DNA of 63,221 nucleotides from an uncultured Planctomycetia bacterium (GTDB lineage: Bacteria; Omnitrophota; Gorgyraeia; Tantalellales; Tantalellaceae), in NCBI GenBank assembly GCA_964409365.1, contig CAYPCX010000005.1, positions 1 through 63,221 on the forward strand. Reading direction: 5' to 3'. The position numbers and the translations under genes are program-made. Below the pieces are notes generated by a model. The model did not search any database, was not told the origin of the DNA, and worked only from the letters and a program-made list of their open reading frames with translations. Shown piece by piece: positions 3-1,445 of this stretch (its first letter is position 1; each line of letters begins with the position of its first letter).

Positions 3-623
3 CGCAGGGCATCAGAGAACAGAGAGATCATTATTAAAGGAATAGGCGATGCCATGCGTGAAGCCCAGCTGATGGCCGGACGCATAGACACACTGATAAA
101 TGAAACCGAATCAAAACTGAATGAATGCCATCACGAGGCCAAGACGCTTCTTGACCTTGCAATGAGCGGCACAGTAACCAAAGGCGCCGCGTATAAAACA
201 AAAATGCATGAACTTGATAATATGATCGTGGCTCTGGAAGATAAGCTGACCAAACTCCGGACACAAAAGACCGCCAATGACATGACAGCCAACTCAGGCA
301 ACTACCTGCACGAAACCCTGCAGTTTGCCATGGAGCATCTCGACAAAGCCCCGGCAGATGCCCAGAAAAACCTTATAAAGGCCCTTGTCAAAGAGATCGT
401 AATCCATAAAGAGGTTATAAACATTAAAATGTACCTGGGCGATCCTGAAGAAACCCTGCAGGCCGATATTAACGATTGTAAGCACAATACCGAGCCCATA
501 AAAAAGAACTGCCCTGTTCCGGTAAAACACCAGAACAGGGCAGTAACCAACCAGACGCTTGGTGCGTCTGTTCGTCAACAATGGCTCCCCGGGTTGGATT
601 CGAACCAACAACCTACTGGTTAA
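3..623 (+). CDS. C-terminal part of a probable large serine recombinase (5' end outside the window); its last codons are the antisense of tRNA-Asn
   Basis: The frame is open from base 3 (RRASENREIIIKGIGDAM...). A long coiled-coil is followed by AQKNLIKALVKEIVIHKEVINIKMY, the typical LSR C-terminal pattern. It ends WLPGLDSNQQPTG* inside the tRNA. The catalytic domain is not visible. Confidence 0.6.
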   Translation, partial: RRASENREIIIKGIGDAMREAQLMAGRIDTLINETESKLNECHHEAKTLLDLAMSGTVTKGAAYKTKMHELDNMIVALEDKLTKLRTQKTANDMTANSGNYLHETLQFAMEHLDKAPADAQKNLIKALVKEIVIHKEVINIKMYLGDPEETLQADINDCKHNTEPIKKNCPVPVKHQNRAVTNQTLGASVRQQWLPGLDSNQQPTG

Positions 624-657
624 CAGCCAGTCGCTACTACCATTGAGCTACCGGGGA
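582..657 (-). tRNA. tRNA-Asn (GTT), intact, CCA encoded
   Basis: Reverse complement reads TCCCCGGTAGCTCAATGGTAGTAGCGACTGGCTGTTAACCAGTAGGTTGTTGGTTCGAATCCAACCCGGGGAGCCA (76 nt). Acceptor stem TCCCCGG/CCGGGGA, anticodon arm ACTGG-CTGTTAA-CCAGT, T-loop GGTTCGAATCC. Confidence 0.97.
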
Positions 658-660
658 GCG

Positions 661-903
661 TTATACTTGCAAACCATCCAGAAATTGTCTGCCTTTTCCG
701 GATTTCAAGAACTTCTCACGTTTAATAGCTTCCTTCTTCTCAGGATATCTCTCGCTATACAACAGGACAAAAGGCCTGTTCTGGCTCGTCCAAATGCTAT
801 CCCCCTTATTGTGCTCTTTTAATCTTTCCTCAGGGGTCTTAGAAGTATACCCTATGTACCTTTTGCTATTACGTAAACTCCTTAATACATAAACGTGATA
901 CAT
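661..903 (-). CDS. Stand-alone GIY-YIG nuclease (80 aa), copy 1
   Basis: VYVL...RYIGYT...ERLKEHN...REKFLKSG; the Tyr/Gly/Arg/His/Glu catalytic set of small GIY-YIG proteins is present. Confidence 0.9.
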   Translation of the reverse strand: MYHVYVLRSLRNSKRYIGYTSKTPEERLKEHNKGDSIWTSQNRPFVLLYSERYPEKKEAIKREKFLKSGKGRQFLDGLQV

Positions 904-928
904 TCATTTACTATATACATCGTTTACT

Positions 929-957
929 TTTATAAACCAATACACTTACATTGTCAA
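929..957 (-). promoter_or_regulatory. Sigma70-type promoter of GIY-YIG copy 1
   Basis: TTGACA (957-952), 17-nt spacer, TATAAA (934-929), 25 nt upstream of the ATG at 903. Confidence 0.7.
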
Positions 958-1021
958 CAGCCCCAGCCAGAGGCTGGTCAGCCTTCGGCTGAAGTCGCTA
1001 CTACCATTGAGCTACCGGGGA
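956..1021 (-). pseudogene. tRNA-Asn 5' half with a 30-nt insertion in the anticodon stem
   Basis: TCCCCGGTAGCTCAATGGTAGTAGCGACT + [TCAGCCGAAGGCTGACCAGCCTCTGGCTGG] + GGCTGTT; no T-arm or 3' half follows. Confidence 0.85.
963..992. repeat. Double 15-nt hairpin (REP-like); second copy at 1327-1356
   Basis: CCAGCC-AGA-GGCTGG directly followed by TCAGCC-TTC-GGCTGA. Confidence 0.85.
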
Positions 1022-1024
1022 GCG

Positions 1025-1267
1025 TTATACTTGCAAACCATCCAGAAATTGTCTGCCTTTTCCGGATTTCAAGAACTTCTCACGTTTAATAGCTTCCTTC
1101 TTCTCAGGATATCTCTCGCTATACAACAGGACAAAAGGCCTGTTCTGGCTCGTCCAAATGCTATCCCCCTTATTGTGCTCTTTTAATCTTTCCTCAGGGG
1201 TCTTAGAAGTATACCCTATGTACCTTTTGCTATTACGTAAACTCCTTAATACATAAACGTGATACAT
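1025..1267 (-). CDS. Stand-alone GIY-YIG nuclease (80 aa), copy 2, identical to copy 1
   Basis: Identical translation in the ORF track. Confidence 0.9.
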   Translation of the reverse strand: MYHVYVLRSLRNSKRYIGYTSKTPEERLKEHNKGDSIWTSQNRPFVLLYSERYPEKKEAIKREKFLKSGKGRQFLDGLQV

Positions 1268-1292
1268 TCATTTACTATATACATCGTTTACT

Positions 1293-1321
1293 TTTATAAA
1301 CCAATACACTTACATTGTCAA
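1293..1321 (-). promoter_or_regulatory. Sigma70-type promoter of GIY-YIG copy 2
   Basis: Same TTGACA-N17-TATAAA as 929-957, offset by 364 bp. Confidence 0.7.
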
Positions 1322-1385
1322 CAGCCCCAGCCAGAGGCTGGTCAGCCTTCGGCTGAAGTCGCTACTACCATTGAGCTACCGGGGA
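1320..1385 (-). pseudogene. tRNA-Asn 5' half with the same 30-nt insertion (promoter-proximal copy)
   Basis: Same as 956-1021; sits at the original chromosomal position behind the native promoter. Confidence 0.85.
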
Positions 1386-1416
1386 GCGAAGCATGTATGT
1401 CTTTCAGCGAACTCTA

Positions 1417-1445
1417 ATTATAGAGAATATACCAGACATTGTCAA
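1417..1445 (-). promoter_or_regulatory. Native tRNA-Asn promoter (consensus sigma70)
   Basis: TTGACA (1445-1440), 17-nt spacer, TATAAT (1422-1417), pointing toward the tRNA 5' end at 1385. Confidence 0.8.

Follow-up and report, generated by a model that had tools for sequence, protein, structure and literature searches.

The 63,221-nucleotide stretch analyzed here (the window; contig CAYPCX010000005.1 of an uncultured Planctomycetia bacterium) carries near its left end a tandem array of a 364-bp unit that is lodged in a tRNA-Asn gene and encodes a minimal GIY-YIG nuclease. Tandem Repeats Finder places the array at 629-1388, with a period of 364, 2.1 copies (2.09), 100% matches, no indels and a score of 1520, and a repeat search resolves it as A-B-A-B-A, where A is 32 and B 332 nucleotides (nt) long. 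Both programs thus return the two-copy layout at tRNA-Asn that had been proposed in the original prediction, a reading of this DNA from its letters and open reading frames (ORFs). Copies are counted as assembled, which gives two units in the window. The whole 63 kb contains one tRNA gene, Asn-GTT at 582-657 on the minus strand (ARAGORN; Rfam agrees, with 66.6 bits for tRNA), and tRNA is the sole known RNA family matched in a Rfam scan of the unit. Read 5' to 3' along the minus strand, the features are the following.

1417-1445, minus strand: native sigma-70-type promoter of the tRNA locus, TTGACA-17-TATAAT, 12/12 consensus matches, 28 nt upstream of the first tRNA fragment
1357-1388, minus strand: repeat A, copy 1, CGC plus tRNA-Asn nt 1-29, on the native leader; identical to nt 1-29 of the intact tRNA
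1327-1356, minus strand: double hairpin 1, TCAGCCGAAGGCTGA (1342-1356) plus CCAGCCTCTGGCTGG (1327-1341), between tRNA nt 29 and 30
1320-1326, minus strand: tRNA-Asn nt 30-36 (GGCTGTT), the remnant continued past the hairpins; read directly
1268-1319, minus strand: 52-nt spacer with a promoter-like TTGACA (1316-1321), 17 nt, TATAAA (1293-1298); read directly
1025-1267, minus strand: GIY-YIG ORF, copy 1, 80 amino acids, single domain (Pfam GIY-YIG)
993-1024, minus strand: repeat A, copy 2, CGC plus tRNA-Asn nt 1-29 (repeat search)
963-992, minus strand: double hairpin 2, identical to double hairpin 1
956-962, minus strand: second copy of the stub of tRNA-Asn nt 30-36
904-955, minus strand: second copy of the spacer (TTGACA 952-957, TATAAA 929-934)
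661-903, minus strand: GIY-YIG ORF, copy 2, 80 amino acids, stop codon TAA at 661-663 (Pfam GIY-YIG)
582-660, minus strand: CGC plus the sole intact tRNA-Asn(GTT) (582-657; ARAGORN, Rfam), CGC and the first 29 nt being repeat A, copy 3
508-544, minus strand: intrinsic terminator, a 17-bp stem then a T run (inverted repeat), closing the promoter-remnant-ORF-remnant-ORF-tRNA unit

The three copies of repeat A (629-660, 993-1024 and 1357-1388) are in register, the two units (661-1024 and 1025-1388, 364 bases each) are identical, and one period runs exactly from the hairpins through tRNA nt 29. As had been predicted, the intact tRNA is rebuilt at the distal end, 3 nt past the nuclease stop: TAA at 661-663 is followed by CGC and then by tRNA nt 1 at 657. 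The duplicated tRNA portion is the 5' part, nt 1-29, and not the 3' part. In this respect the "5' half" assigned to each unit by the original prediction stands, but it overlooked the hairpin pair and the heptamer GGCTGTT (tRNA nt 30-36) that directly follows the pair in each unit, which means that the remnant is tRNA 1-36 split at 29/30. Its statement that the unit has no terminal inverted repeat does not hold, as the 364-bp unit has a palindromic terminal structure, the conserved double hairpin of 30 nt situated at the break point. The native promoter was recognized correctly. In contrast, the promoter placed in each unit, TTGACA-17-TATAAA, misses the conserved last T of the -10 element and was not called by a consensus promoter scan. 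Nor is a promoter within the unit conserved in the family, many relatives having only 7-25 nt between the hairpins and the ATG; the spacer in the window is longer than in most relatives and lacks a Shine-Dalgarno sequence before the ATG. Ten bases, TTGACAATGT, are common to the native promoter (1436-1445) and both promoter-like sites of the units (1312-1321 and 948-957); this match may be due to chance, about one such match being expected in 1.3 kb by a rough estimate. In line with the prediction, Pfam finds neither an integrase or recombinase nor an HUH (Y1) TnpA transposase in the 364-bp unit, the GIY-YIG gene being its only ORF with a domain match.

The two identical 80-residue products match the Pfam GIY-YIG profile over residues 1-70 (E=4.6e-17), with T5orf172 as a sub-threshold match. 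The AlphaFold model (pLDDT 94.7) consists of the GIY-YIG core alone: the protein stops after the catalytic core, there is no separate DNA-binding domain, and the family consensus is 80-81 residues long. By structure it comes closest to UPF0213 proteins, to the nuclease domain of Slx1 (TM 0.64-0.68) and to the catalytic domain of I-TevI, and the nearest solved relatives by sequence are the UPF0213 proteins 1ywl and 1zg2 (E about 1e-10) and Slx1. The claim that the catalytic residues are kept is borne out by 30 aligned relatives, in which Y5, Y16, G18, H31 and E63 are invariant and R27 is conserved in at least 90%. The ratio of nonsynonymous to synonymous substitution rates (dN/dS) among relatives ranges from 0.08 to 0.24, with a median of 0.17, indicating that the ORFs are under purifying selection and hence that the protein is kept functional. 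Several database proteins hold two GIY-YIG stretches, and these are read-throughs of tandem ORFs. NCBIfam offers no curated name for the protein.

A first protein search returned 76 relatives at up to 77% identity; they belong to Omnitrophota, Patescibacteria and other groups, and many are on very short contigs. A scan of one genome per species yielded at least 570 relatives among at least 599 candidate stretches, and a profile search of 1.84 billion cluster representatives 5,388 clusters (50% identity) at E<=1e-10; the family spans more than 10 phyla. The linkage count is taken from 96 non-redundant ORFs in 112 loci; individual loci are given below by their handles (L002 and so on). In the best 80 loci a tRNA usually begins a few bases past the ORF stop on the same strand. 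Association of the homologs with tRNA genes had been fixed beforehand as the check that could overturn the prediction, and the prediction clearly withstands it: 55 of the 96 ORFs have a same-strand tRNA start within 40 nt of the stop. For 19 of these 55 the gap is -10 or -11, the stop codon being the TAG from tRNA nt 8-10, and the C-termini of some annotated relatives run into tRNA D-arm sequence. Twelve further ORFs precede a tRNA-Asn split after the anticodon by a group I intron (12/12 confirmed by Rfam), and most of the remainder lie at a contig end, at N masking or alongside hairpin-broken or truncated tRNA copies. As to the isoacceptors used, a point that the prediction had raised, the family is found at tRNA-Asn(GTT), the commonest, and at Pro, Gln, Ala, Ile, Met, Val, Arg, Phe, Thr, Cys and Gly tRNAs; in 28 of 46 cases an ORF shares its tRNA type with its nearest protein relative, where chance would give 25%.

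The order of parts, the same in nearly all loci, is a leader, tRNA nt 1 to n, two adjoining 15-nt hairpins, the next 2-13 tRNA nt, a spacer (7-60 nt across loci), the ORF and an intact tRNA, the remnant and the intact tRNA being usually identical over their shared part. The upstream copy of the tRNA 5' part, first noticed in the window, is the rule across the family. We could not find this arrangement, which recurs in many uncultured bacterial phyla, described in the literature searched: neither the full-text literature, with subscription journals outside its coverage, nor the 2006 superfamily survey reports a tRNA-linked minimal GIY-YIG protein with hairpins. The group I introns lie in the anticodon loop of tRNA-Asn(GTT) (Rfam Intron_gpI, 64-101 bits; L002, L023, L026, L030, L046 and L053, and likewise just after the ORF in L054, L060, L064, L070, L074 and L107), and ARAGORN overlooks the genes that they split. 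The end of the window remnant (nt 36) coincides with the intron start site in these relatives.

The double hairpin is likewise a conserved part of these loci. In the window the pattern CMGCCNNNGGCKG occurs four times in 63 kb, always in the array, against 0.39 expected, and the pair folds as DNA with -11 kcal/mol (z=-4.1). Across the family each hairpin has six perfect base pairs and a 3-nt loop, with the consensus YSMGCC-NNN-GGCKSR. Perfect 15-nt hairpins number 198 in 428 kb of loci, as against 0-4 in shuffled sequence; at least one is present in 74 of the 80 loci, 121 of the 198 are within 100 nt upstream of an ATG, and few are more than 1 kb from an ORF. By strict criteria, 72 out of 110 ORFs have a hairpin pair in the 160 nt before them. 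In the 40 cases that could be mapped the hairpins are always paired and are inserted without loss or duplication of a base. The insertion sites within the tRNA are 8/9, 12/13, 17/18 (D loop), 28-29/30 (anticodon stem of tRNA-Asn), 34/35, 54/55 (T loop) and 63/64. These sites share a context, Y|RRCT, in which a pyrimidine precedes the insertion (59 T and 11 C among 70) and R-R-C-T follows it; the site in the window, ACT|GGCTG, matches it. It is exactly at this consensus that the partial tRNA copy is broken by the hairpins, and the intact tRNA beside the ORF retains the site.

The stems covary, with T-A or C-G at pair 1 and A-T or C-G at pair 3, and 706 of 744 stem pairs are Watson-Crick. The loop of the first hairpin is RRA (A at the last position in 55/62) and that of the second TYY (T at the first position in 56/62), and therefore the whole 30-mer is two-fold symmetric. 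An RNA-type signature was sought in the hairpins and rejected: G-U-type pairs (12) show no excess over A-C-type ones (9), both being rare, and the loops are mirror-symmetric. With this symmetry and no G-U excess, the hairpins look like a DNA-level signal and not an RNA-level one, the symmetry being what one would expect if both strands of a duplex or cruciform are read. A hairpin or hairpin pair is also found inside the loop of another hairpin (L041 3597-3657; L097 ~2430-2480), indicating that the module is itself insertable and can target its own kind. A second ORF lineage in L114 (79 amino acids) goes with longer hairpins (1845-1915), e.g. TGCCGCC-AGA-GGCGGCA, at tRNA-Tyr 35/36 after a G, which suggests co-variation of nuclease and hairpin. 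Another palindromic repeat (ctcgattcgtct..., gaatcgagtgtcctg...gtcgaagggcattcg), unrelated to the 15-nt hairpins, stands behind each tRNA of the cluster in L097 (1761-1898 and 2224-2440).

Comparison of related loci shows that these ORFs turn over. L019, L021 and L041 differ in the number of tRNA-Asn copies and in which of these are split by hairpins. The flanks of L021 and L041 are 93-97% identical, whereas their GIY-YIG proteins are only 68% identical; for L021 and L019 the figures are about 79-84% for the flanks and 86% for the proteins. In an Ile-Phe-Pro cluster whose flanks around the tRNA-Phe site are 86-96% identical, this site is empty in L010 and carries an ORF in L097, while L007 has no ORF there but a hairpin and 12 nt of remnant. 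Presence/absence polymorphism at one conserved site in related genomes is thus found at tRNA-Phe. L114 and L117 are 99.7% identical over 1.5 kb rightwards and unrelated in their left flanks, the shared stretch starting no more than about 5 nt from where the hairpin pair begins. The serial occupancy foreseen in the original prediction recurs as well: L013 has a second perfect array (294 bp x 2.1, 100% identity), different ORFs stand in series before successive tRNAs (L097-L105, L114) or twice in one tRNA (L037), and degenerate or heterologous series are seen in L010, L027, L037, L050, L097 and L114.

A minority of loci show a mirror-image order of intact tRNA, ORF and hairpin-broken copy (L065 1919-2323; L077 2896-3311; L080 2925-3259; L091 9-739), mostly in Chloroflexota-type genomes, and only in this variant is the tRNA 3' part duplicated. 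In its second tRNA copy single hairpins replace the D arm or bits of the anticodon or T arm, and the hairpin of L091 differs, being a 16-nt one, TCCTTCCGGGGAAGGA. Downstream of an intact tRNA-Gln, L075 (3372-3777) repeats tRNA-Gln nt 18-74 three times in tandem; every 160-nt copy is interrupted by hairpin modules at 34/35 and 54/55, and one copy contains an N run. In L114 the remnant left of the hairpins (1424-1442, GCCGAAATAGCTCAGTT) and the intact tRNA-Thr (1737-1812, GCCGTTGTAGCTCAGTT) differ in their acceptor arms, so that a mere rebuilding of the resident gene does not account for the tRNA linked to the element. Directly after tRNA-Pro, L097 (2800-4470; also L100, L103 and L104) has on the opposite strand a gene for a 556-residue large serine recombinase, probably an island integrated at the tRNA 3' end; unrelated genes follow tRNA-Pro in L099 and L102, though an identical 85-residue nuclease is encoded in all these contigs. 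In the window itself a plus-strand ORF (3-623; at least 206 amino acids, coiled-coil-like) runs off the left end and ends within the opposite-strand tRNA-Asn. It was suspected to be the tail of a recombinase, but nothing supports this, Pfam detecting no domain in it and so no recombinase domain. The GC skew of the plus strand is negative across the whole window (1-63221), which puts the tRNA and both nuclease genes on the G-rich and presumably leading strand.

The unit hence consists of a 30-nt dyad-symmetric double hairpin, a tRNA stub, the gene for an 80-residue single-domain GIY-YIG protein and a spare copy of tRNA nt 1-29. On balance we favor, as a moderately probable reading, that the array represents two copies of a selfish nuclease-hairpin mini-element that resides in tRNA genes and spreads by a break-and-copy process in which the tRNA is rebuilt. 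A guide to how it might act is provided by the Ssn nucleases (SsnA of Neisseria meningitidis; CDD cd10448), single-domain GIY-YIG proteins of about 94 residues that bind a GC-rich hairpin repeat (NTS/SRM) only as single-stranded DNA and cut a few nt 5' of it (Chenal et al. 2025, PMC11893778). We infer the break-and-copy route and each of its enzymatic steps as follows. The whole locus would be transcribed as one unit from the tRNA promoter, with the ORF product presumably made at a low level, there being no Shine-Dalgarno sequence. The nuclease would, like Ssn, bind its cognate GC-rich hairpin in single-stranded DNA and nick at the hairpin foot, and would also cut hairpin-free Y|RRCT sites, which tRNA genes offer at conserved places, namely T8|AGCT, TT|GGCT in the D loop and T29|GGCTGTT in tRNA-Asn. 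Repair of the break would then copy from an occupied copy: a short tract would transfer the hairpin pair alone, and a long one the hairpins, the ORF and the tRNA 5' part, with the consequence that the tRNA would be rebuilt at the far end. As the rebuilt tRNA would retain the site, re-cutting with out-of-register repair could add units, although an array might alternatively grow by plain unequal exchange between the 32-69-nt direct repeats.

Several observations weigh against this reading. The intact tRNA keeps its presumed site T|GGCT and yet survives, so that cutting must be rare, limited to single-stranded DNA or absent, and the target of the nuclease could be other than the tRNA gene. The mirror-image variant falls outside a simple 5'-replacement scheme, and the model offers no account of how an element would obtain the 5' part when it takes up a new tRNA species (compare the acceptor arm in L114). 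The family was found neither in 72,556 plasmids nor in 50,697 phage genomes, and 2.9 million viral contigs gave only 2 matches; these collections thus yielded no plasmid or phage carrier. Further, of the empty alleles for which the prediction called, one exists at the tRNA-Phe site of L010, but none was found for the window's own species: exact look-ups of three window proteins brought up no second assembly, a 27-nt pattern from the window leader had no match in metagenome contigs, a protein scan of these contigs gave only distant relatives (<=67% identical), and no other allele came out of these searches. The idea that the hairpin arms serve as guides to the local target was tried and dropped, with 3.71 identities out of 6 against 3.65 in the null and 228 of 2000 shuffles reaching the observed value. 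Finally, the hairpins were rejected as an instance of the published Ssn motif: its SRM consensus, HGTCWY..YYVSBRH..WNVSBRG..RNCYNB, is matched by 0 of 62 hairpin pairs, and its 2 matches in 499 kb of loci are at chance level, with none in the window.

Some of the same features would be expected of a single-strand transposon, in which the nuclease nicks the 5' foot of the hairpins and the equivalent Y|RRCT in the downstream tRNA, and the unit from the hairpins to nt n is released or copied and inserted into a nicked, single-stranded tRNA gene; the route would be akin to IS200/IS605 or rolling-circle transposition, with a GIY-YIG protein in the place of the usual enzyme. A period that equals exactly hairpins to tRNA nt 29, insertion of the pair without target duplication and always after a pyrimidine, and the L114/L117 breakpoint at the hairpin edge all fit such a route, as does the action of Ssn enzymes on single-stranded DNA only, together with the insertion-sequence-like repeat-gene-repeat layout noted by their authors (PMC11893778). 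However, GIY-YIG nucleases hydrolyze DNA without a covalent intermediate, and joining would therefore need host functions. Moreover, entry into other tRNA species would give a chimeric tRNA, whereas remnant and intact tRNA usually agree in their shared part, and no free or circular form is known; we regard the transposon as unlikely. We give equally little credence to a domesticated, host-serving Ssn-like system that controls recombination, transformation or the integration of foreign elements at tRNA loci, with the tRNA fragments as by-products of local recombination. Such a role would be consistent with the strong purifying selection on the ORF, with the Neisseria SsnA, which modulates natural transformation and does not move itself (PMC11893778), and with the use of tRNA genes as common integration sites, as illustrated by the large serine recombinase gene right after tRNA-Pro in L097. 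It accords poorly with the patchy distribution, the turnover of ORFs between near-identical loci, the tRNA-Phe site that is empty, degenerate or occupied in related genomes, the copies in series and in tandem, and the confinement of the hairpins to these loci instead of the whole genome (4 in the 63-kb window, all in the array).

The 100% identity of the two units, along with the failure to find a second assembly of the species, raises the question of whether the second unit is an assembly artefact and the real genome has a single remnant-hairpins-ORF-tRNA insertion. We consider this improbable, more so than either of the preceding alternatives, for only a tandem array contains the junction of ORF end, repeat A and hairpin, the repeat measures just 32 nt, and an assembler ending with k >32 would presumably need reads across that junction. 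Arrays of the same kind are, besides, present in the independent genome L013 and reflected in the several database proteins with two GIY-YIG stretches, and even a true artefact would change the copy number and not the nature of the element. Least probable of all, and in our view very unlikely, is that the hairpins act in RNA, as processing sites, stabilizers or insulators of a tRNA-ORF co-transcript, and that the protein may act on RNA or tRNA. Their location in the 5' untranslated region of a unit driven by a tRNA promoter, 7-60 nt before the ATG, and the hairpin-split full-length tRNA copies of L019 and L041 would suit this, but the RRA/TYY loop constraint and the two-fold symmetric 30-mer are what is expected of DNA and not of RNA, and the balance of G-U-type and A-C-type pairs tells the same way. 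In the mirror-image variant, moreover, there are hairpins behind the ORF as well, many hairpin-split copies lack parts of the tRNA and so cannot be functional, and SsnA neither binds nor cuts RNA (PMC11893778).

If the favored reading, the selfish nuclease-hairpin element spread by break-and-copy, is correct, then an element that ranks among the smallest self-sufficient ones known inhabits the tRNA genes of much of the uncultured bacterial world (Patescibacteria, Omnitrophota, Binatia, Bdellovibrionota-like forms, Chloroflexota and others). We take the unit for a nuclease-hairpin pair used as a tRNA-resident mobile element, and the chances are fair that it merits a class of its own among minimal mobile elements. 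More tentatively, and at somewhat less than even likelihood, we propose a previously unrecognized autonomous class of about 290-370 bp whose sole protein is an 80-residue hairpin-dependent GIY-YIG nuclease and whose insertable 30-nt double hairpin enters Y|RRCT without target duplication, in many isoacceptors of more than 10 bacterial phyla and some archaea, the tRNA being kept functional by partial duplication and the displaced copy disabled. On the favored reading, Ssn-type single-strand nucleases would gain a natural history as mobile-element enzymes, which their authors had voiced only as a hypothesis, and the many new nuclease-hairpin pairs with a short cut-site consensus could become tools for single-stranded DNA. 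The elements also have practical consequences for the genomes concerned: tRNA fragments and hairpin-split pseudo-tRNAs are left behind, ORF calls run on into tRNAs, and contig breaks fall at the same places, all of which bears on tRNA annotation and on assembly.

Among known systems, the islands and prophages that integrate in tRNA genes share with the present element the tRNA target and the logic by which a carried copy restores the gene and leaves a partial copy at the other end. Such islands encode a recombinase of the tyrosine or serine type, and it is as a rule the 3' part that they duplicate. In contrast, the unit described here has 364 bp and no recombinase, and across the family it is mostly the 5' part that is duplicated. 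IS200/IS605 elements and REP/RAYT systems are comparable in their very small size, hairpin-defined ends, insertion after a short specific sequence without target duplication and action on single-stranded DNA (here proposed); they differ in having an HUH Y1 transposase that forms a covalent intermediate, as against a hydrolytic GIY-YIG enzyme, and in not rebuilding a tRNA.

Seg and I-TevI enzymes, to which the original prediction had likened the nuclease as homing endonucleases, are about 200-250 residues long and possess linker and DNA-binding domains. The free-standing GIY-YIG homing endonucleases of phages (T4 SegB, in a tRNA gene cluster, PMC2330249) resemble the present family in their catalytic core and in a free-standing gene beside tRNA genes. 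For both, the proposed mode of spread is cutting of a gene-less copy that is then repaired from a gene-bearing one, and presence/absence is seen here too. However, a bare 80-residue core that lacks a DNA-binding domain does not make a classical homing endonuclease, neither the phage nor the plasmid collection contained the family, and phage enzymes have neither a double hairpin nor a duplicated tRNA part. In fungal mitochondria (Allomyces), mobile endonuclease ORFs bring along a replacement gene end, and double-hairpin elements exist. Insertion in an essential gene with a carried copy there leaves a functional gene and a pseudo-fragment, and short GC-rich two-hairpin elements go with such insertions. 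These cases concern organelle genomes and the 3' ends of protein genes, and their hairpin elements are dispersed and variable (26-79 bp). They may be a close analogy in logic.

The closest parallels come from the Ssn nucleases. Their hairpins tolerate any loop whereas the stem sequence matters, the enzyme is active even with the stem halves on separate strands, and the genes are often flanked by the repeat, a layout that the authors likened to an insertion sequence (PMC11893778). In both cases we have a single-domain GIY-YIG protein of 80-94 residues with the same Tyr-Tyr-Glu spacing (Y6/Y17/E64 in SsnA, Y5/Y16/E63 here), a gene adjoining its cognate GC-rich hairpin repeat, hairpins whose loops are free in Ssn and vary here while the stems matter in Ssn and are conserved and covary here, and different protein lineages with different hairpins, as in the longer ones of the second L114 lineage. 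Cutting just 5' of the hairpin, as by Ssn, is hinted at indirectly by the L114/L117 breakpoint, which falls at the 5' edge of the hairpin pair, and by the precise junctions. The differences are that the published SRM consensus is absent here, where we find instead a fixed dyad-symmetric pair of 15-mers, that these hairpins are confined to tRNA loci while Ssn repeats are scattered in hundreds of copies, and that the insertion here is precise within a tRNA, with the gene between intact and broken tRNA copies. Given the missing SRM motif and a Ssn paper in which tRNA is nowhere mentioned (PMC11893778), we do not file the element as a member of Ssn. Nevertheless, the likeness in domain, residue spacing and layout suggests that the element probably works in the manner of a Ssn nuclease-hairpin pair.

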